From: Pseudomonadota bacterium
GTDB taxonomy: Bacteria > Pseudomonadota > Gammaproteobacteria > Burkholderiales > DATLHW01
Reading direction: 5' to 3'
Assembly: GCA_040388195.1 (NCBI GenBank)
Contig: JAZKCF010000042.1
Coordinates: forward strand, 2,885-66,884
Length of the DNA stretch: 64,000 nucleotides
Shown one piece after another: positions 5,067 through 52,483 of this stretch. Under the pieces are notes generated by a model. It searched no databases, was not told where the DNA came from, and saw only the letters and a program-made list of their open reading frames with translations. The translations under genes and the position numbers were made by a program. Positions within the stretch are counted from its first letter, which is position 1. Each line of letters begins with the position of its first letter.

Positions 5067-5095
5067 CCGCCTTTGGGACGGTTTTGCGTAAATCC
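5067..5095. repeat. solo right-end fragment of the TTACGCAAAA element family (R5)
   Basis: ccgcctttgggacggttttgcgtaaatcc aligns by eye with the right end of R1 (cgccttgctggggcggttttgcgtaagtcc). Confidence 0.55.
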
Positions 5096-24868: not shown

Positions 24869-26302
24869 ATGCCTCAAATCGTAAACACCAACATTGCTTC
24901 GCTAAATGCGCAACGCAACTTGAATTCTTCCCAATCTTCCTTGCAAGTGTCTCTCCAACGTCTGTCTTCCGGCCTCCGGATCAACAGCGCGAAAGACGAT
25001 GCTGCAGGCTTGGCGATTACAGAACGGTTCAATGCCCAGATCCGCGGCTTGAACCAAGCAGCTCGTAACGCTAATGACGGTATCTCTTTAGCACAAACGG
25101 CTGAAGGCGATTTGGGTCAGATCACCAACAACTTACAGCGGATTCGCGAACTAGCTGTACAGTCAGCTAACGCATCCAACAGCGCATCTGACCGTTCCGC
25201 ACTGAACTCAGAAGCACAACAGCTAATCTCTGAAATTGACCGCGTCTCGCAAGCCTCATCGTTCAACGGTGTTAAATTGCTCGACGGAACATTTTCTGCA
25301 CAAGCCTTCCAAGTCGGTGCTAACAGCACCGCAAACGACCAGATCACCATCTCGTCGATCGCAAGTGCTCGTACCACTGCACTTGGTGGCGTAACGCAAG
25401 CAAGCCTCAGCTCATCGGCCCCAAACACCACTGCATTAGGTGCAACCGACGTAGTGATTAACGGTATCGCAATCAGCGCTTCCGCAGCCAGCGCCGATAC
25501 GCTGTCTACCGCTAGCAACTCCGCCAGCGCGATCGCAAAAGCTGCAGCCATCAACGCAGCTTCAGGCACGACCGGTGTAACGGCGCAAGTGAATGCAACC
25601 ATAGCTGCAGGTACCACCTACGGCGCTGCTGCAAACACGGGCTCGGTCGACATCAATGGCGTCACCATCGCCATCACAACAACGGCAGCAGCGGCTACTA
25701 CCCGCCAAAACGTCGTGACAGCCATCAACGCTAAAACCTCGCAAACCGGCGTAACCGCTCTTGACAACGGTTCAACGGTAGAACTGAGCGCAGGTGATGG
25801 ACGGAACATCGTTGTAGCCAACTACACCACGATCACTGCCGCCGGCTCCACACTAGGCGCAGCAGGTACCTATGCCGGTACCTACACCTTGACATCCGCC
25901 AACCAGATCACGGTTGCAGCAGGTGCAGGTACGATCGCTAACTCAGGCTTAACCGCCGGTACGTATGCAACAGCAAGTAGCGGTAGCGCGATCAGCACGT
26001 TGAATATATCGACCGCATCGGGCGCCACCAGCGCTCTGTCTGCGATCGATTCAGCGCTAACCGCGGTAAACAGCTCCCGCGCTTCACTTGGTGCATTTCA
26101 AAACCGCTTCCAGTCAGTCGTATCGCAAGCACAAACGACTGCTGAAAACTTGACGGCTTCTCGTAGCCGGATTCAAGACGCAGACTTCGCAGCGGAATCT
26201 GCGAACCTGACCCGCGGTCAGATCTTGCAACAAGCTGGTACGGCGATCTTAGCGCAAGCCAACAGCTTGCCTAACAGCGTGCTGAGCTTGCTCCGCGGCT
26301 AA
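24869..26302 (+). CDS. fliC: flagellin
   Basis: The N-terminus [19 protein letters not shown]...[19 protein letters not shown] and the C-terminus [31 protein letters not shown] fit flagellin. The central domain is Ala/Thr/Ser-rich. Confidence 0.97.
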
Positions 26303-29914: not shown

Positions 29915-30955
29915 ATGCCGGTAGATGTTTCATCTTTAGCTAGTCTTTTCCCTTCCCTCCCGCGATTGCTGGGAGGCAGTACAGCGTCTGCAAATAGCAC
30001 ATCAACGACATCAACTTTAGCTGCGGGTCAGATAGTAGCGGCAACTGTTGTGCAAAACCTCGATGCAAACCGGCTTATCGCGACAATAGGCGGGCAAAAC
30101 TACGATTTGCGTCTCCCTATTGCCACCACCATTGGCGAAACACTGCAATTGGAAGTTGTTTCAACTGAACCGGAGCCCTCCTTCCGCCTGCTTAATACGA
30201 CGCCAGGCTCACAAGGCAAAGAACAAAACGTAACGTTCAGCGACACCGCGCGGTTAATGCAATCAGCCAGCGCCACGTTGTCCAATAGTAAAGAGACATT
30301 GCCGGCGAGATTGCGTGCCGATCCAGTTCCGTTAGCGCAGGAGTCCCCTGCAGCGCCAGCCAAACTGGCCGACAATTTAAAATCTGCGATTAGTCAAAGC
30401 GGTTTCTTCTATGAATCGCATCAAGCGCAGTGGGTTAAAGGCAATTATTCATTGGAAGCCTTACGCCAAGAACCGCAGGCTTCGCCGCAGCAAGCAGCGT
30501 CTGCAAACGTGCAGCAAAACCTTGAACAACCAAATCGGCCATTGTCGGGAACCATAACTGGCAAAGATCAACAGCTGTTGCTATCAGCCAATCAAACCGC
30601 GCCTACTTTGGTCGAGCATCAAATCGCAGCTTTAGGTGGCGCACCAATCGAATGGTATGGTCAAGCTTGGCCCGGGCAACCGATACATGTATCGATTCAA
30701 CGCGACAAAGATCCTGGCGCATTTGATGACCCTTCGCAAAAAGGATGGGAAAGCCATCTCACTTTGGATTTACCTAATCTAGGTACCGTCGACGCGACCA
30801 TGCATCTCTCTGCAACCGGCGTGCGAATCACCATTAACGCCGCAGAAGAAACATCGACCGAAGCTTTGCGTACTGCCACCAGAGATTTGGTCGATACACT
30901 GGAAGGCATAGGAATCAAAGTGCTTGGCATAGGATTGGGTCATGGCAGAGGATAA
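29915..30955 (+). CDS. FliK-like protein (second hook-length-control paralogue, Flg_hook-like C-terminal domain)
   Basis: The C-terminal WESHLTLDLPNLGTVDATMHLSATGVRITINAAEETSTEALRTATRDLVDTLEGIGIKV parallels the FliK block at 40740-41834 (AEIHLNPENLGPVDVHIKID...ITFTALNPDTRNALENAMPQLRNMLTESGISV). Confidence 0.7.
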   Translation: MPVDVSSLASLFPSLPRLLGGSTASANSTSTTSTLAAGQIVAATVVQNLDANRLIATIGGQNYDLRLPIATTIGETLQLEVVSTEPEPSFRLLNTTPGSQGKEQNVTFSDTARLMQSASATLSNSKETLPARLRADPVPLAQESPAAPAKLADNLKSAISQSGFFYESHQAQWVKGNYSLEALRQEPQASPQQAASANVQQNLEQPNRPLSGTITGKDQQLLLSANQTAPTLVEHQIAALGGAPIEWYGQAWPGQPIHVSIQRDKDPGAFDDPSQKGWESHLTLDLPNLGTVDATMHLSATGVRITINAAEETSTEALRTATRDLVDTLEGIGIKVLGIGLGHGRG

Positions 30956-31253
30956 ACCAGCAGACAAGCAATTTGTGGCCGCAGCTCTGGCCTATCGAGC
31001 CGGCGCGAGCGCGCCGACAATTACTGCCAAAGGCCGCGGCAAAGTTGCCGAGGAAATTATTCGCCGTGCGAAGGAATCCGGCGTATTCGTACATGAATCG
31101 AAAGAAATGGTGGCTTTGCTGATGGAACTCGACCTCGATCAGCAGATTCCACCCACGCTTTACCGCGTGGTCGCCGAATTGCTAGCGTGGATTTACCGTA
31201 TTGAAAACCGCCTGCCTGCAACTTTAACGGCGCCGGTGGGACCTAAGAAATGA
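30942..31253 (+). CDS. stand-alone FlhB C-terminal-domain-like protein (EscU/YscU/HrcU switch family fragment type)
   Basis: AAALAYRAGASAPTITAKGRGKVAEEIIRRAKESGVFVHESKEMVALLMELDLDQQIPPTLYRVVAELLAWIY aligns with the FlhB region just after the NPTH autocleavage site. There is no transmembrane domain and no NPTH. It overlaps the upstream gene by 14 nt. Confidence 0.85.
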   Translation: MAEDKPADKQFVAAALAYRAGASAPTITAKGRGKVAEEIIRRAKESGVFVHESKEMVALLMELDLDQQIPPTLYRVVAELLAWIYRIENRLPATLTAPVGPKK

Positions 31254-32092: not shown

Positions 32093-32114
32093 GTACTCCG
32101 ATGAAATGAACAGG

Positions 32115-32230
32115 ACTTACGCAAAATTGTCCCAGCAAGGGTTGCGCAGGAGTTTCGAGCAGCATGCTGCGAGCCTGCGAAACGGTTTGCGCATGCAAGC
32201 GCAACGCCGCTGCGACAGTTTTGCGTAAAT
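32115..32230. repeat. TTACGCAAAA-ended palindromic element, long variant (R3, 116 bp)
   Basis: The ends are acttacgcaaaa...ttttgcgtaaat, with internal palindromes gcagcatgctgc and ttgcgc-N6-gcgcaa. It is collinear with R4 at 50958-51130. It fills the ycgR-like / TPR gene gap and touches the downstream ATG. Confidence 0.8.
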
Positions 32231-34757
32231 GCTAATGAAAAAAATTGGGCGTAACGATCCTTGCCCATGTGGCAGCGGCAAGAAAAATAAGCAGTGCTGC
32301 GGACCGCGCGAAAACTTCCAATCGGTAAAACTCCGCTCCGTAAATGTATCCCCTCCCGTGCCTCTTCAAGATGCGTTGGCACATCATCAAGCCGGGCGTT
32401 TGCCGGAAGCGGAAGCCATCTATCGGCAGATACTTCAAATGCAACCAAACGATGCGGACGCACATCATTTGTTAGGTGTAATTGCCATTCAAGTAGGGAA
32501 AAGTGAAGTCGCCATCGAACTCATTGGCAAGGCGCTCAAATTGCGGCCTGATTTTCCCGAGGCATACATTAATTTGGGAAACGCGCTTAGTGATCAAAAC
32601 AGGTTGGACGAAGCAATTGCGTGTTATCGCCAAGCAATCAAATTCAAATCCGATGCTGCCGAAGCGCACAATAATTTAGGAATGGCGCTTAGAGATCAAG
32701 GCAAATTAAGCGACGCAATTGCCTGTTATCGACAAGCAATCACGTTTAAATCAAATAATCCTGAGGCGTATGTCAATCTTGGAAATGCGCTTAAGGAACA
32801 AGGCAAAATAGATGAGGCAATTGCTTGTTATCACCAAGCAATCCAGTGCAAGCCCGATTTTGCCGATGCGCATAATAGCTTAGGAATCGCACTTAAGAAT
32901 CAAGGCAAGATAAACGAGGCGATTATTTGCTATCGACAAATACTCACGTTTCAGCCTGATAACGCCGCAGCACACAATAATTTAGGAGCAGCGTACAAGG
33001 ACCAAGGTAAATTGGAAGAAGCGATTGGCTGTTACGGTGTAGCGATCAAATACAAATCCGATTTTGCCGAGGCTTACATTAATCTGGGAAATGCACTTAA
33101 GGTCCAAGGCAAATTAGACCAGGCAGTTGCATGCTTGAAACATTCGCTAGCGATCAAAGAAACCATCGAAGCAAAAATCGATTTTGCTGCCTGTATAAAA
33201 AACGTTTCTTTCACGCAAGACGACCCTGAGAATCGACAGCTCATCATTAGAGCTCTATCTGAACCGTGGGGCCGGCCGGCCGATCTCGCGGGCACAGGCA
33301 TAAATATTCTCAAATTGAATCAAAACATGAGCGAATGCACAGAGCGTGCAGCGCAAACATGGCCCACCAGATTATCAGCGCAAGAACTATACGGATCTTC
33401 CGGATTTTCTTCCGTTGCAGATGATCGATTGCTGCAGTGCTTGTTGGAGAACGTTCCGATTTGCGATGTAGAACTAGAGCGTTTTTTAACCATGGCAAGA
33501 CTGGCAATGCTGAATGCCACCATAGGCCCTGCTGTTTCCGTTGAACCAAACGAACAAATTTTTTATTGCGCTTTGGCTCGACAATGTTTCATCAACGAAT
33601 ATATTTTTTCCTATACCGACGAAGAGTTCGATCAAGCACAATCGTTACGAGAACGCGTCGTCACTGCAATAGCAGCTAAATCATCTGTTCCTGCCGCATG
33701 GTTGATAAGCGTCGCCGCCTACTTCCCTTTGTTCTCTTTACCCACCATTGAAGCGCTATTCGATCAATCCTGGCCTGAAGCGGTTAATGCCTTGCTGGTG
33801 CAACAAATACGAGAACCGCGGGAAGAACAGCAGTATCGCGCTCAAATTCCCAGGCTTACACCCATTGATGATGAGGTTTCCTTATTAGTTCAGCAACAAT
33901 ATGAGGAGAATCCGTACCCTAGGTGGATTAAATGTCAGCAACGCGATAATCACCTGTCTCTGGAAGCCTATTTACGGCAACAGTTCCCGTTTGCGCCGAT
34001 TAAACCATTAGAGAAAAACGATGCGATCGATATTCTGATTGCTGGCTGCGGAACTGGCTGGCAATCAATTCAAACGGCGCAGCAATTTCGCCAGTCCCGA
34101 GTATTGGCCATTGATTTAAGTGTAACCAGTCTTTGCTACGCAAAAAGAAAGACGCACGAGCTTGGCTTGGAAAACATTGAATACGCGTGTGCCGACATCA
34201 CGAAGCTTGAATCCAGCGGGCGAACGTTTGATGCCATTGAGTCCATTGGTGTGCTGCACCATCTCGCGGACCCGAAAGCCGGTTGGCAAATGTTACTTTC
34301 ATTACTACGCCCTAATGGATTTATGCGCTTGGGTTTTTACAGCGAATATGCACGTCGCAATATTATTGCAGCACGGCAATTCATTGACCAACAAGGATAT
34401 GCAGGAAACGCAGCTGACATACGGCGTTGTCGCCAAGATTTAATATCCATGAAAGATAACGAGCAATTTAAAAAGCTACTGTCGTTCAATGATTTTTACG
34501 GAACTAGTGAATGTCGCGATCTGTTATTCCATGTTCACGAACATCATTTCACGTTACCGCAAATTAAGAAAATTTTAGAGGAATTTGATTTGGAATTTAT
34601 CGGGTTTTTTCTTGAAGCTCATGTAACCCAAAAATATGAAGTTCGCTTCGCGGATGACACATCAAAGACAAACCTGGATTACTGGAATATTTTTGAAACC
34701 GAAAATCCAGATATTTTTTCCGGCATGTATCAGTTCGTTGTACAAAAACGAGGATAA
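32229..34757 (+). CDS. SEC-C motif / TPR repeat / class I SAM-dependent methyltransferase fusion protein
   Basis: N-terminal GRNDPCPCGSGKKNKQCCG (SEC-C zinc motif), about nine 34-aa TPRs (AIACYRQAI.FK....AEA..NLG.AL..QGK), and C-terminal ILIAGCGTGWQSI (motif I). The start may be ATG 32235. Confidence 0.85.
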   Translation: MLMKKIGRNDPCPCGSGKKNKQCCGPRENFQSVKLRSVNVSPPVPLQDALAHHQAGRLPEAEAIYRQILQMQPNDADAHHLLGVIAIQVGKSEVAIELIGKALKLRPDFPEAYINLGNALSDQNRLDEAIACYRQAIKFKSDAAEAHNNLGMALRDQGKLSDAIACYRQAITFKSNNPEAYVNLGNALKEQGKIDEAIACYHQAIQCKPDFADAHNSLGIALKNQGKINEAIICYRQILTFQPDNAAAHNNLGAAYKDQGKLEEAIGCYGVAIKYKSDFAEAYINLGNALKVQGKLDQAVACLKHSLAIKETIEAKIDFAACIKNVSFTQDDPENRQLIIRALSEPWGRPADLAGTGINILKLNQNMSECTERAAQTWPTRLSAQELYGSSGFSSVADDRLLQCLLENVPICDVELERFLTMARLAMLNATIGPAVSVEPNEQIFYCALARQCFINEYIFSYTDEEFDQAQSLRERVVTAIAAKSSVPAAWLISVAAYFPLFSLPTIEALFDQSWPEAVNALLVQQIREPREEQQYRAQIPRLTPIDDEVSLLVQQQYEENPYPRWIKCQQRDNHLSLEAYLRQQFPFAPIKPLEKNDAIDILIAGCGTGWQSIQTAQQFRQSRVLAIDLSVTSLCYAKRKTHELGLENIEYACADITKLESSGRTFDAIESIGVLHHLADPKAGWQMLLSLLRPNGFMRLGFYSEYARRNIIAARQFIDQQGYAGNAADIRRCRQDLISMKDNEQFKKLLSFNDFYGTSECRDLLFHVHEHHFTLPQIKKILEEFDLEFIGFFLEAHVTQKYEVRFADDTSKTNLDYWNIFETENPDIFSGMYQFVVQKRG
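32373..33190 (+). repeat. tandem 102-bp coding repeats (TPR units) inside the fusion gene
   Basis: Consecutive 34-codon units are recognisably similar at the DNA level, e.g. gcaattgcgtgttatcgccaagcaatc / gcaattgcctgttatcgacaagcaatc / gcaattgcttgttatcaccaagcaatc. Confidence 0.8.
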
Positions 34758-34781: not shown

Positions 34782-34871
34782 GTAGCCCGGATGAAGCGTC
34801 AGCGTAATCCGGGGGTGACATTCTCCGCTCCACCTTCGCCCCGGATTACACTGACGCTTCATCCGGGCTAC
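34782..34871. repeat. pair of inverted REP-like units (33-bp arms, 24-nt spacer)
   Basis: gtagcccggatgaagcgtcagcgtaatccgggg faces ccccggattacactgacgcttcatccgggctac with one mismatch. Each arm is itself a hairpin (cccggat...atccggg). It lies between convergent genes, so it could act as a bidirectional terminator. Confidence 0.85.
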
Positions 34872-34924: not shown

Positions 34925-35233
34925 TTAGACTTGCATATTCATAATGTCATGATAAGCGGAAACCAACTTGTTCCTTACTTGTACTGCCGCTTGAAATGAA
35001 ATGTTGGCTTTTTGCATCGACACCATCGCTTCTTCCAATGTGACGCCATTTTGGTCGAGCTGAAATTGCGTCGCGAGCGATTGCGCTTGATGTTGGGACT
35101 CGTTAACCTGATCAAGCGAGCGCTTGAGCATTTCGAGAAAGGAGCCTGATCCGGCGGCCTGTGTTGCGGGTGCGCTAGTTACGCCAGCTGAAGCCAAAGC
35201 GCTTTGCAGTGCATCAATTTTAGGAATCTCCAT
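34925..35233 (-). CDS. fliE: flagellar hook-basal body complex protein FliE
   Basis: The C-terminus MQKANISFQAAVQVRNKLVSAYHDIMNMQV fits FliE. I prefer the internal ATG at 35233 (MEIPKIDAL), which has a GAGG Shine-Dalgarno sequence. Confidence 0.9.
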   Translation of the reverse strand: MEIPKIDALQSALASAGVTSAPATQAAGSGSFLEMLKRSLDQVNESQHQAQSLATQFQLDQNGVTLEEAMVSMQKANISFQAAVQVRNKLVSAYHDIMNMQV

Positions 35234-35365
35234 GGTACACCTCTTCACAGATTGCTCACTGTGCGACGATAGCATCACCTTTCTTGCTTGAGCCCTCGAA
35301 ACAGAAATACAAAAATGACCTAATTTTCATGATCCCAGGCTAACCTGCTATCCCCACCGCCAAAA

Positions 35366-46339: not shown

Positions 46340-48193
46340 ATGGGCGAAGCAATGCGGCCTTCTGTAACTGGAAAAAACCAAAAATTAACACTTACACAAG
46401 TTGTTGCCTGGTTGGTTGCCGATGAAATACTGCTACCGGAAAAAGCGGCAGAAATTCGGCCGACCGCACCGCAAGCAGATCCCGCCGAAAATCATCCTCT
46501 AACCATCATCGCCGCTCGCGGTTTGTTCAATGCAAAGCCGCCCCATAAAGCGTTAACGCTAGAAGCACTAACGACCTGGCTTGCCAATCGTGTACAGATG
46601 CCATATCACCGCATCGATCCTCTAAAGATAGATGTGACAGCGGTTACCGCCGTGATGTCTTACAACTTCGCAAAACATCACTCGATTTTGTGTATTGGGG
46701 CGCCGCTGGAAAAAGTCATCATTGCCACTGCCGAACCGTATCTTAACGGCTGGGAGGAAAATCTTGCACCGCTGCTAAAGCGACCAATCGAGCGCGTGAT
46801 CGCTAATCCGCTAGATATCAGCCGTTATCTTGTAGAGTTTTACGCACTGTCACGTTCGGTAAATCAGGCCAACGGGCGAGCGCAGACTGGTCATGGAAAT
46901 GAGATTACTAACCTCGAACAAATGGTGGAATTGGGCCGGCGAGGTAAGCTTGATGCCAATGACCAGCACATTGTTAATATCGTGGATTGGTTGTTGCAAT
47001 ACGCTTTCGATCAACGGGCAAGTGATATTCATCTCGAGCCGCGGCGTGATGAAGGCAGCGTACGTTTTCGTATCGATGGTGTTTTACATTTGGTTTATCA
47101 AATGCCGATGCCGGTATTGGCTGCGGTAACAAGCCGCGTCAAGATTCTCGGACGTATGGATCTGGCGGAAAAACGCCGCCCACTTGATGGCCGGCTCAAG
47201 ACTAAAACACCGGATGGAAAAGAAATTGAATTGCGCTTATCCACCATGCCGACTGCCTTCGGCGAAAAATTGGTAATGCGCGTTTTCGATCCGGATGTAC
47301 TGGTTCGCAATTTTCGCGATCTCGGCTTTAATAACGAAGAACTCGCGGCATGGCACGAAATGATCAAGCAGCCTACGGGCATTGTTCTTGTGACAGGTCC
47401 AACCGGCTCTGGAAAAACAACCACGCTTTATTCCACGCTCAAATTATTGGCTACTCCCGGCGTTAACGTATGTACGATCGAAGACCCGATAGAAATGGTG
47501 GAGCCGGCATTTAATCAGACACAGATGCAACACAACATCGGTCTCGATTTCGCATCTGGCGTACGCGCCTTATTACGGCAGGACCCTGACATCATCATGG
47601 TCGGCGAAATTCGCGATCTCGAAACTGCTGAAATGGCCGTGCAAGCGGCGCTTACCGGTCACCTGGTCTTATCAACACTGCATACCAACGATGCTCCCAG
47701 CGCTATCACGCGCCTGCTTGACCTCGGTGTGCCGCCATACCTCATGAATGCGACCTTGCTCGGAGTACTCGCGCAGCGACTGATTCGCACACTCTGCCCT
47801 CATTGCAAGCAACCTGGTCCTACTAATATGCAGGCCTGGCAACAAATCACGCTTCCTTGGCAGTCACCGCCACCGGCAAAGACTTACCATCCTCAAGGGT
47901 GTCTGGAATGCCGTAATACCGGATACATGGGGCGAATTGGCATTTATGAACTTCTGACATACACACAAGGTTTGAAAGAGCTTGTACATGCCAATGCCGA
48001 GTTGCATCCCTTAAGAGCAAAAGCCCGCAAAGAAGGAATGCGTTCGTTACGATTGAGTGGAGCGGAGAAAGTACACAACGGAATAACAACAATCGAAGAG
48101 GTATTGAAAGTTGCGCCTGCCGATGACGTGAAGAAAAACGCATCACGCGCCGAACAAGTTTTAAATTCTGCAAATACGATCAAAAATGAATGA
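46340..48193 (+). CDS. GspE/PulE/PilB-family secretion ATPase (orphan; no partner genes in the window)
   Basis: T2SSE_N-like N-domain, Walker A VTGPTGSGKTTTLYS, Asp/His boxes (IMVGEIRD, GHLVLSTLHTND) and a tetracysteine CPHC...CLECRNTGYMGRIGIYE. Confidence 0.9.
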   Translation: MGEAMRPSVTGKNQKLTLTQVVAWLVADEILLPEKAAEIRPTAPQADPAENHPLTIIAARGLFNAKPPHKALTLEALTTWLANRVQMPYHRIDPLKIDVTAVTAVMSYNFAKHHSILCIGAPLEKVIIATAEPYLNGWEENLAPLLKRPIERVIANPLDISRYLVEFYALSRSVNQANGRAQTGHGNEITNLEQMVELGRRGKLDANDQHIVNIVDWLLQYAFDQRASDIHLEPRRDEGSVRFRIDGVLHLVYQMPMPVLAAVTSRVKILGRMDLAEKRRPLDGRLKTKTPDGKEIELRLSTMPTAFGEKLVMRVFDPDVLVRNFRDLGFNNEELAAWHEMIKQPTGIVLVTGPTGSGKTTTLYSTLKLLATPGVNVCTIEDPIEMVEPAFNQTQMQHNIGLDFASGVRALLRQDPDIIMVGEIRDLETAEMAVQAALTGHLVLSTLHTNDAPSAITRLLDLGVPPYLMNATLLGVLAQRLIRTLCPHCKQPGPTNMQAWQQITLPWQSPPPAKTYHPQGCLECRNTGYMGRIGIYELLTYTQGLKELVHANAELHPLRAKARKEGMRSLRLSGAEKVHNGITTIEEVLKVAPADDVKKNASRAEQVLNSANTIKNE

Positions 48194-48268: not shown

Positions 48269-49561
48269 TTAACTCACTTCTTTGTCGATCTTACCGGCCC
48301 AAAGGAAAGACTCCACCTGCATCTGTAATAGATTTTCAAGCGATAGGCCGGGCGCAGCGGCGAGCAACTCATCAACTTCGATTTCACTATCTACTTCTAA
48401 TTTTTCTGTCAGCCGCAATAATTGCCCAAGCTTTCCAGTACCGTGAAGCAATGCTTCTTTTACTTCGTCAGCGACTAAAATTTCGTCGAAAATTTCTTCT
48501 CTTGGCATTTCCAAGAGCGCATCGACCAACGATAAAATACCAGTCATAAATGCGGTATCCTGATATTCCCGGGAAGAATGCGGATCGATTTTAGCCAACG
48601 ACTCCATGAATTTTCCGCGGCTTGCAGCCATTTCTAACAACGGGTTCTTTGTTGTTCCGTTGTCACGAGCAGTATAGAGAAGTAACTGCATCCAAATTTG
48701 CAACTGGCGGCGACCGAGTAACACGATAGCATGTCGCAATGATGTTATTCGCTCCCGTAAACCAACGGCTGCCGAATTAACCATGCGGATCAAATTATAG
48801 GAAAGCGTGGGGTGGTATTTAAATTCCGAACTCAACATGCCGATATCTGCATCACTCAAAATCAAGGACAGCAATCGCAGCAAATGCGCTTTCGCAGGCG
48901 CTTTTTGTTGCTTTTTGGTGAGTAGTTGCGGCCGTGCGAAATGGTATCCTTGAAAGAGATCGAAGCCTAACTGGCATGCCTCATCGAACTGCTCTTTTGT
49001 TTCCACCTTTTCGGCTACCAGCCGCAATCCGCGACGGCGTAAACCAGCGACAGTTTCCGATAAAAGAACTGGATCAATTTCTAGCAAATCAACTTTAACA
49101 ATATCGACCTCACTTAGAAAAAGCTCTTGCTTATTCACTTCACCTGCGTAGTCATCGAGCGCAAAGCAATACCCCTTGCTTTTGAGTTCCCTTAAACGCT
49201 CAATGATCTCGGCGCTTGGCTCAACTGATTCTAGTATCTCTAAAACGACTTGCTGAGGAGGTAATGCTTCAACTAAATCCGATAACAAGAAATGAGTATC
49301 GACGTTAATATATCCTTGTGCATCACCAAGCACTGCTGTAAATCCCATACCGCTAAACGCATTTTGTACGACAGTGGTAGTTGCGCGCATGTGCTCTGTG
49401 ATATCGGCATAATCGGTTCCATATGAGCGAAACAATAACTCGTATGCAACTAATCTTTTTTGCTGATCCAAGATAGGTTGTCTCGCTAAAAAAATAACCT
49501 CCAAGCCTTCCTTGATCGGTGGCTGAAGAGATTGCGAGTTGAATTCGCCTTTAACGTCCAT
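48269..49561 (-). CDS. EAL + HDOD domain signalling protein (COG3434/YuxH type)
   Basis: The N-terminal EAL domain carries the ELL variant (VAYELLFRS), plus LEILES, ALDDYAG, VKVDL and FQGYHFARP. The C-terminal half is HDOD-like (LLSLILSDADIGMLSSEFKYHPTLSYNLIRMVNSA). Confidence 0.85.
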   Translation of the reverse strand: MDVKGEFNSQSLQPPIKEGLEVIFLARQPILDQQKRLVAYELLFRSYGTDYADITEHMRATTTVVQNAFSGMGFTAVLGDAQGYINVDTHFLLSDLVEALPPQQVVLEILESVEPSAEIIERLRELKSKGYCFALDDYAGEVNKQELFLSEVDIVKVDLLEIDPVLLSETVAGLRRRGLRLVAEKVETKEQFDEACQLGFDLFQGYHFARPQLLTKKQQKAPAKAHLLRLLSLILSDADIGMLSSEFKYHPTLSYNLIRMVNSAAVGLRERITSLRHAIVLLGRRQLQIWMQLLLYTARDNGTTKNPLLEMAASRGKFMESLAKIDPHSSREYQDTAFMTGILSLVDALLEMPREEIFDEILVADEVKEALLHGTGKLGQLLRLTEKLEVDSEIEVDELLAAAPGLSLENLLQMQVESFLWAGKIDKEVS

Positions 49562-52350: not shown

Positions 52351-52372
52351 ACTCAACTCCTAATTTATCTGA

Positions 52373-52467
52373 CTTACGAAAAATCGCCCCGGCGGCGTTA
52401 CGGCTCCTTGCCGTACTAGTTTGTACTGTCTGCGTCGCCGCGCCTTGCTGAGACGATTTTGCGTAAG
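52373..52467. repeat. TTACGCAAAA-ended palindromic element, copy R2 (95 bp) in the flgK-flgL gap
   Basis: About 90% identical by eye to R1 (1425-1520), in the same orientation. The shared core is gttacggctccttgccgtactagttt(g)gtactgtctgcgtcgccgcgccttgctg. Confidence 0.85.
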
Positions 52468-52483
52468 TCCTATGTTGTTATGA

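Follow-up and report, generated by a model that had tools for sequence, protein, structure and literature searches.

A TPR-armed, PKMT-like methyltransferase gene at the end of a flagellar gene string: a probable protein-modifying enzyme from a large modular family

To our knowledge, few bacterial enzymes have been found to methylate protein lysines: PKMT1/2, KmtA, Rv2067c, EftM, PrmA and FliB. The gene described in this study lies in a 64,000-nucleotide stretch of contig JAZKCF010000042.1 from a Burkholderiales bacterium (assembly GCA_040388195.1), the whole of which is called the window. It is located between a ycgR-like flagellar brake gene and fliE, and its product joins a SecA-type zinc knuckle, an arm of tetratricopeptide repeats (TPRs), a helical domain and a class I methyltransferase dependent on S-adenosylmethionine (SAM, or AdoMet). 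The closest solved system is Rv2067c of Mycobacterium tuberculosis (PDB 8HKR), a class I protein-lysine methyltransferase with a C-terminal domain and with a large and a small dimerisation subdomain, which interrupt the catalytic domain at the beta5-alpha5 and beta6-beta7 loops, respectively (PMC10739865). PKMT1 and PKMT2 of Rickettsia and the related KmtA of Acinetobacter methylate many lysines of the exported surface proteins OmpB and AtaA, without a consensus motif (PMC11784438). In OGT and SPINDLY, a TPR superhelix at the N-terminus is joined to a transferase at the C-terminus, as is found here. We consider it fairly probable that the window gene encodes a SAM-dependent, TPR-armed, PKMT-like protein methyltransferase which belongs to a large modular family and was recently appended to the fliC...ycgR string; by analogy with the enzymes above, the target residue would most probably be lysine.

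An uninterrupted open reading frame (ORF) runs on the + strand from 32229 to 34757 and comprises 842 codons counted from the first in-frame ATG, as in the preliminary description of this DNA. Judging by comparison with relatives, the ATG at 32235 is probably the conserved start (MKKIGRN..., 840 aa). It is favoured because the public record of an identical protein, P0001, gives 840 aa and because the locus L080 conserves the ATG-AAA-AAA start. No paralogue of the gene was found within the window. Domains were searched in Pfam and NCBIfam, with the best 25 matches for the whole protein and complete tables for its segments. The gene and its parts are as follows.

32235..34757, + strand: the complete gene, SEC-C / TPR / helical domain / methyltransferase (ORF list and translation)
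32250..32306, + strand: SEC-C knuckle (SecA-type metal-binding), aa 8-26, GRNDPCPCGSGKKNKQCCG (Pfam PF02810, 33.9 bits against a cut-off of 20.4)
32358..33197, + strand: eight TPRs (aa 44-309) and a capping helix (aa 313-323), an OGT-like superhelix (Pfam TPR_11, E = 3e-66; AlphaFold2 model)
33165..34013, + strand: conserved all-helical middle domain, aa ~313-595 (helices H313-H585 in the AlphaFold2 models; many invariant columns)
34020..34754, + strand: class I (seven-beta-strand) SAM methyltransferase, aa ~598-842 (Methyltransf_25, E = 2e-17; 8hkr; Foldseek)

The preliminary description had divided the protein into three parts: a SecA-type C-terminal zinc motif placed at the N-terminus, about nine near-identical TPRs, and a class I SAM methyltransferase domain. 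All three types of domain were recovered, but the description had overlooked a fourth, the helical domain at aa ~313-595, and its account of the repeats has to be revised. The SEC-C pattern C-x-C-x8-C-C/H is present above the Pfam threshold; the matching motif, GRNDPCPCGSGKKNKQCC, is almost identical to the tail of Escherichia coli SecA. The AlphaFold2 models are of high confidence both at full length (predicted local distance difference test score, pLDDT, 91.5; predicted template modelling score, pTM, 0.86) and for the core only (pLDDT 91.9, pTM 0.90), while aa 1-40, which hold the zinc knuckle and a linker reaching to ~aa 40, have low pLDDT and are poorly ordered. Pfam TPR families reach E = 3e-66 over aa ~48-310. 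In the model, sixteen helices (H44-H309) are followed by the cap helix H313-323, with pLDDT >90. They form eight repeats of 34 aa in register, not nine, and these are far from near-identical, with a mean pairwise identity of 41% among all eight and 54% among repeats 3-8. The best PDB matches of the arm are the TPR domains of human OGT and SPINDLY (profile E ~1e-107; Foldseek E ~1e-16).

The ~280-aa middle domain (aa ~313-595) has no Pfam match, and Foldseek gave no structural match for it beyond the methyltransferase part. It is closed, just before motif I of the methyltransferase, by the 13-residue motif VQQQYEENPYPxW (aa 554-566), which is invariant in the family. The assignment of the C-terminal part to the class I methyltransferases was borne out by both searches and model. 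Methyltransf_25 matches aa 602-697 with E = 2e-17, and Methyltransf_25, 11, 12 and 31 all pass the Pfam gathering cut-offs. Motif I (ILIAGCGTG), D629 and D656 are invariant across the family, and seven strands are seen in the AlphaFold2 model. The SAM-binding residues G606, G608, G610, D629, D656 and H677/H678 are invariant even in members sharing only 32-58% identity. The model further shows an insert of four or five helices at aa 710-766 and a two-helix insert at aa 797-825, and the protein ends ~2 residues past beta7.

The best solved sequence relative of the non-TPR part is 8hkr, found from the single sequence with E = 3e-21 over ~200 residues. The alignment covers GVLHHLADP, which is identical in the two proteins, the D-x-F-x-H...F/Y-T region after the core, and the large insert. 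With a profile built from 30 diverse family cores, Rv2067c was retrieved at E = 2e-35, PKMT2 at 1e-11 and PKMT1 at 2e-9. The fold search was run with the core-only model, as the results for the full-length model were swamped by TPR proteins. Rv2067c occupies ranks 1-2 of the Foldseek list and PKMT1 and PKMT2 occupy ranks 3-9 and 11; apart from E. coli CmoM (4htf) at rank 10, small-molecule methyltransferases rank behind all of them. D629 and H677/H678 are identical in the Rv2067c alignment and are candidate equivalents of the AdoMet-contacting Asp102 and His146 of RpPKMT1.

Rv2067c gives the strongest match in fold (Foldseek E = 8e-13 over 270 columns) and shares with the target the seven-beta-strand core, the four- or five-helix insert after beta5 and the two-helix insert between beta6 and beta7, so that the inserts at aa 710-766 and 797-825 sit where the dimerisation subdomains of Rv2067c and the PKMTs are. 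The PKMT1/PKMT2 and KmtA enzymes belong to the same catalytic clade by fold (E ~1e-9) and profile, and likewise possess an AdoMet domain with an inserted dimerisation domain. Because of sequence, fold and insert positions, the catalytic module can be assigned to the Rv2067c/PKMT clade. There are also clear differences. Identity in the fold alignment is only ~24% with Rv2067c and 15-19% with the PKMTs. Rv2067c lacks the TPR arm, the SEC-C knuckle and the N-terminal helical domain, and has its own C-terminal alpha+beta domain of ~100 aa, which is absent from the target; it is secreted, acts on a host protein and trimethylates free histone H3 at K79. The PKMTs carry C-terminal "middle" and "C-terminal" domains where the target has its TPR and helical domains at the N-terminus. 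None of these C-terminal substrate-binding domains is present in the target, whose alignments stop at Rv2067c residue ~257-288, and its additional domains are N-terminal, unlike those of Rv2067c and the PKMTs. The target is thus a new architectural variant of the Rv2067c/PKMT-type enzymes, not a member with a known substrate. Arms of OGT-like TPRs are a typical feature of enzymes that modify proteins. The arm of the target resembles that of OGT, although OGT bears a GT41 glycosyltransferase domain in place of a class I methyltransferase, and the binding of a peptide in the TPR lumen would be by analogy only. The earlier idea of a protein-modifying enzyme is therefore supported, since the best matches in both sequence and fold are bacterial protein-lysine methyltransferases and the arm is OGT-like.

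The family to which the gene belongs is very large. At least 7,951 proteins were retrieved with the non-TPR half, and the alignments of the best 120 cover 93-100% of that half, with identities of 53-68%. An exhaustive search with the middle domain alone gave 3,440 clusters at 50% identity, 2,199 of them at E <= 1e-10. The middle domain is nearly always followed by ~250 aa of methyltransferase, whereas the arm on its N-terminal side ranges from 0 to ~860 aa; the SEC-C knuckle is present in only some members, and some members have no TPRs (P0056, P0059). Members come mainly from Betaproteobacteria (Nitrosomonadales, Gallionellaceae, Thiobacillus, Methylophilaceae) and Alphaproteobacteria (Hyphomicrobiales). 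Tandem paralogues are found in L038 and L040, which implies diversified clients. A SEC-C-TPR-sulfotransferase adjoins a SEC-C-TPR-methyltransferase in L097 (5979-10277), and a TPR-GT9-like glycosyltransferase adjoins a TPR-methyltransferase directly upstream of fliC in L094 (68-4387). These pairings suggest a modular set of TPR-armed transferases. A literature search for fusions of SEC-C, TPR and methyltransferase found nothing relevant. Alphaproteobacterial members begin with the basic motif MNRKQRRAA instead of the SEC-C knuckle, which may be an analogous N-terminal tag; this start was seen in L009-L011, L013, L019, L023, L027, L029, L031, L033, L043, L045 and L071.

The target follows, on the same strand, the string fliC, flaG, fliD, fliS, fliT, a fliK-like gene, an FlhB C-terminal-domain gene and the YcgR-like gene. 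Its position between a YcgR-like brake gene and fliE, as previously described, was confirmed by Pfam and NCBIfam matches of both neighbours, with the YcgR-like protein scoring E = 1e-30 against NCBIfam YcgR, below the family cut-off. The features of this locus are listed below.

24869-26302, same strand as the target: fliC (477 aa, 4 Lys)
30942-31253, + strand: stand-alone FlhB C-terminal-domain gene (TIGR00789-like), which overlaps the fliK-like gene at the latter's end and is kept in the syntenic loci L082-L092
31334..32092, + strand: ycgR-like flagellar brake gene (PilZN and PilZ), the last ancestral gene of the fliC...ycgR string (Pfam PilZN E = 3e-26, PilZ E = 2e-9)
32105..32234, no strand: dispersed palindromic repeat element of ~130 nt (inverted repeat; clean indel relative to L080)
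34782..34871, no strand: hairpin separating the convergent target and fliE genes (33-nt arms, 97% complementary; 24-nt loop)
34925-35278, - strand: fliE, convergent downstream of the target, then fliF

The gene gained its place in this locus recently, as a lineage-specific addition at the 3' end of the fliC...ycgR string. In a reverse test, loci were retrieved with the YcgR-like protein. L082-L084 keep the order fliC...fliK-flhB'-ycgR / fliE / fliF, with fliE directly after ycgR and the target gene absent, and in L091, L092 and L081 that junction is occupied by nitrate-assimilation or pirin genes; unrelated cargo is found at the ycgR 3' end in L089 as well. In L080, a close relative with ~88% nucleotide identity, the ATG of the target gene lies 13 bp past the ycgR stop, and the window junction differs from it only by the clean insertion, ~130 nt in length, of the dispersed palindromic element. 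It follows that the gene was in tight coupling with ycgR at the time of its acquisition. Similarity between L080 and the window ends after about TPR 4, and at ~1351-1696 the L080 frame runs stop-free into the antisense strand of an unrelated gene; for this reason the 1.7-kb contig may be chimeric or rearranged. L080 was accordingly rejected as evidence of a full-length orthologue and used for the ycgR-start junction only.

Synteny across the family was surveyed by tblastn of 16 flagellar proteins of the window against 73 genome loci with flanks of ±10 kb. A flagellar gene lies within 10 kb in four of these loci and is absent from the other 69, so that flagellar synteny was rejected as a general property of the family. 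When the 1,226 neighbouring ORFs were clustered all-against-all, no neighbour conserved family-wide was found, and the only synteny was lineage-specific, namely a porin, GatA and GatB in Hyphomicrobiales. Among the 11 closest homologues (58-68% identity), one is flagellum-linked, two are beside type II secretion system (T2SS) operons, and the rest are near housekeeping, integrase or cytochrome genes. Linkage to flagellin or other flagellar genes is sporadic, though enriched. The member in L094, 61% identical to the target, is paired with the TPR-glycosyltransferase and stands immediately upstream of fliC-flaG-fliD-fliS-fliT; that in L044 is 30 bp from fliC; that in L059, a metagenome-assembled genome (MAG) of Saccharospirillum, lies between fliS and a giant fliD with fliC; and that in L066 lies between fleQ and fliS. 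Four filament-adjacent members compare with 0.1-0.5 expected at random in ~83 loci by our rough estimate, which gives a Poisson P <= 0.002. Flagellin loci are known hot spots of insertion. Monophyly of the flagellum-linked members was rejected, as they are scattered by identity and the nearest relative of the L044 member, in L026, is unlinked. A TPR-arm specificity shared between the window protein and P0007 was also rejected, with an arm identity of 46%, no higher than for unlinked members.

Two observations were made along these loci. L059 (11458-19236) encodes a giant flagellin of 1,062 aa and a giant FliD of 1,301 aa, and L066 is similar, with a flagellin of 732 aa. In L075 (5481-9978) and L093 (3466-7953) the family gene has a conserved trio of genes before it and a complete type II secretion (gsp) operon after it; the trio encodes a ~875-aa protein with a weak multicopper-oxidase match, an SCO1/SenC and cytochrome c protein, and an Lcl_C-domain protein.

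Surface lysines are abundant in the flagellin of Salmonella. The remark of the preliminary description that the window flagellin contains few lysines is correct: the four are K42, K136, K224 and K289. The flagellins beside betaproteobacterial members are all lysine-poor, with 4/477 residues in the window fliC, 2/498 in L044 (8436-9932) and 6/714 in L094 (4650-6794), and K42 is kept in all three. The corresponding conserved K42 site was reported to be di- and trimethylated in the flagellin of Aeromonas caviae (PMC9290775). The analogy drawn earlier with FliB of Salmonella applies to the outcome alone: the gene is also flagellum-associated, and methyl-lysine on flagellin would be the shared product if the client is flagellar. 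The type of enzyme is different. FliB has no TPRs, and its fold is unrelated to class I methyltransferases. Its methyl transfer is [4Fe-4S]-mediated (PMC8598068). No FliB-, Maf- or FlmG-type family was found among the listed Pfam and NCBIfam matches (best 25 for the whole protein and complete tables for the segments).

What the enzyme would act on is the question that separates the possible explanations. In the mechanism that we propose, the catalytic domain of the Rv2067c/PKMT1/PKMT2 clade, with its two helical subdomains, would methylate a client; the OGT-like TPR superhelix and the helical domain with its VQQQYEENPYPxW motif may capture an extended or unfolded stretch of that client and feed it to the active site; and the flexible SecA-type zinc knuckle, in this subgroup, may dock the enzyme on SecB or ribosomes, the places at which unfolded clients bound for export are met. 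The gene would then be one paralogue of a very large modular (SEC-C)-TPR-transferase family, appended to the 3' end of fliC...ycgR in this lineage. The client suggested by the preliminary description was a flagellar one. In that case a flagellar export substrate (FliC at K42 or another lysine, FliD or a hook-associated protein) would be methylated in the cytoplasm before type III export, with the TPR arm recruiting the unfolded substrate. We regard this as possible but doubtful. It fits the shared strand with fliC...ycgR and the operon-like 13-bp spacer of L080, the lack of any other candidate modification enzyme in the flagellar clusters of the window, the four members placed beside filament genes, each in a different position, and the conserved K42. 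The scarcity of flagellar linkage speaks against it, since about 95% of the sampled loci and 10 of the 11 closest homologues lie elsewhere, there is no family-wide neighbour, and the linked members are scattered in the tree with arms as divergent as those of unlinked ones. L082-L084 lack the gene and other cargo occupies the junction in L091, L092 and L081, and the adjacent flagellins offer few lysines. No sigma-28 or sigma-54 motif was found in the 136 bp upstream of the target, though sigma-28 motifs were found at flgK and fliC, and a sigma-70 scan gave scores at or below shuffled expectation. Chitinophagales and Polyangiaceae are taxa not known to bear flagella, and members are present in MAGs assigned to both (L055 and L061, respectively); L030, a "Synechococcus" MAG, was dropped as a further non-flagellate example because its protein is nearly identical at the N-terminus to that of Hydrogenophaga L032 and contamination of the MAG is suspected. 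The SEC-C knuckle, moreover, points to SecB or ribosomes and not to flagellar chaperones. The idea of a flagellar-substrate methyltransferase thus largely fails the synteny test that the preliminary description had put forward, and keeps in its favour the L080 junction and the filament-adjacent members.

The same enzyme may instead serve a non-flagellar client, a Sec-dependent envelope, outer-membrane or secreted protein, the paralogue having landed at a permissive operon boundary where its placement is incidental; we give this a real chance, somewhat short of an even one. The variable 3' end of ycgR (empty in L082-L084, with unrelated cargo in L081, L089, L091 and L092), the repeat elements on the flanks of the gene and the family's overwhelming lack of linkage to flagella agree with it, as do P0004 and P0005, which are beside T2SS operons, and the tandem paralogues. 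The PKMT clients OmpB and AtaA are outer-membrane or cell-surface proteins and are exported through Sec. SEC-C domains bind SecB and ribosomes in SecA and AscA (YecA), as outlined in two preprints (bioRxiv 10.1101/613315; 10.1101/2020.07.21.215244), though in the target the domain differs in being located at the enzyme's N-terminus, on a disordered linker, and optional within the family. The 13-bp coupling in L080, which suggests co-transcription with a flagellar gene, and the statistical excess of members adjoining filament genes tell against an incidental placement. It is improbable, by comparison, that small molecules, lipids or glycans are the substrates of this class I enzyme, its TPR arm being no more than a scaffold or a localisation module. 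Class I folds are promiscuous as to the class of substrate, and in the match lists the PKMT-type enzymes are followed by phosphoethanolamine, sugar and natural-product methyltransferases. Some members lack TPRs, flagellin glycans in Shewanella are known to bear methyl groups (PMC3765264), and in L094 the family gene is paired with that of a glycosyltransferase. Yet the three best solved matches by sequence and fold are all protein-lysine methyltransferases, with the clade-specific helical inserts included, the arm is of the kind seen in protein modifiers, and no sugar-biosynthesis genes are among the annotated ORFs of the window. Several points do weigh against a PKMT-like protein methyltransferase: the class of substrate is unreadable from the class I fold alone, with generic small-molecule methyltransferases coming later in the match lists; the C-terminal domain of Rv2067c and the middle and C-terminal domains of the PKMTs are absent, and therefore the substrate trough must be built differently; and the knuckle, and even the TPR arm, is dispensable in parts of the family.

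What is new here is a family, thousands of clusters in size, in which a PKMT-like module is combined with an OGT-like TPR arm and an uncharacterised conserved helical domain. If it methylates export-bound proteins, the known scope of bacterial protein methylation would be greatly widened, and bacteria would have, in this family, a parallel to eukaryotic OGT with its TPR arm joined to a transferase. The copies embedded in flagellar loci are a tractable entry point, with a defined set of candidate clients; should the client prove non-flagellar, the finding would still correct a tempting annotation by guilt of association. A broader proposal, which we put forward as speculation and hold to be rather unlikely as a whole, is that Nitrosomonadales-type Betaproteobacteria and many Alphaproteobacteria would possess a large and so far unrecognised OGT-like toolkit of (SEC-C)-TPR-methyl-, sulfo- and glycosyl-transferases that post-translationally modifies unfolded export-bound proteins, the knuckle docking on SecB or ribosomes and the TPR arm selecting the client. 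The copies in filament clusters (window, L094, L044, L059 and L066) would then form a new class of flagellar-protein methyltransferases, unrelated to FliB, with very lysine-poor flagellins as substrates, possibly at K42.

Both flanks of the gene carry inverted repeats, for which an Rfam search gave no match. Other copies of the palindromic element, ~100-130 nt in size, are found at 1424-1521 and 52372-52468, with a partial copy near 5077-5093. Its termini are GGACTTACGCAAAA...CCCAGC and GCTGGG...TTTTGCGTAAGTCC, and the element resembles repetitive extragenic palindromes or miniature inverted-repeat transposable elements (REP/MITE-like). The two arms of the hairpin at 34782-34871 are the sole copies in the window, and the hairpin is probably a bidirectional terminator or a REP-like element. 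No glycosylation island was found among the larger annotated ORFs of the window. At 51-61 kb there is a second flagellar cluster (flgL, flgK onward), and the interval between the two clusters encodes an MshE/T2SSE-type ATPase (46340-48193) as well as an EAL+HDOD protein (48269-49561). The genes of these two proteins and of YcgR are related to cyclic di-GMP and lie around the motility loci. A 612-aa ORF without a Pfam match at 14286-16124 on the + strand lies in a patch of low GC content (0.427 against ~0.48 elsewhere) and is possibly foreign DNA.

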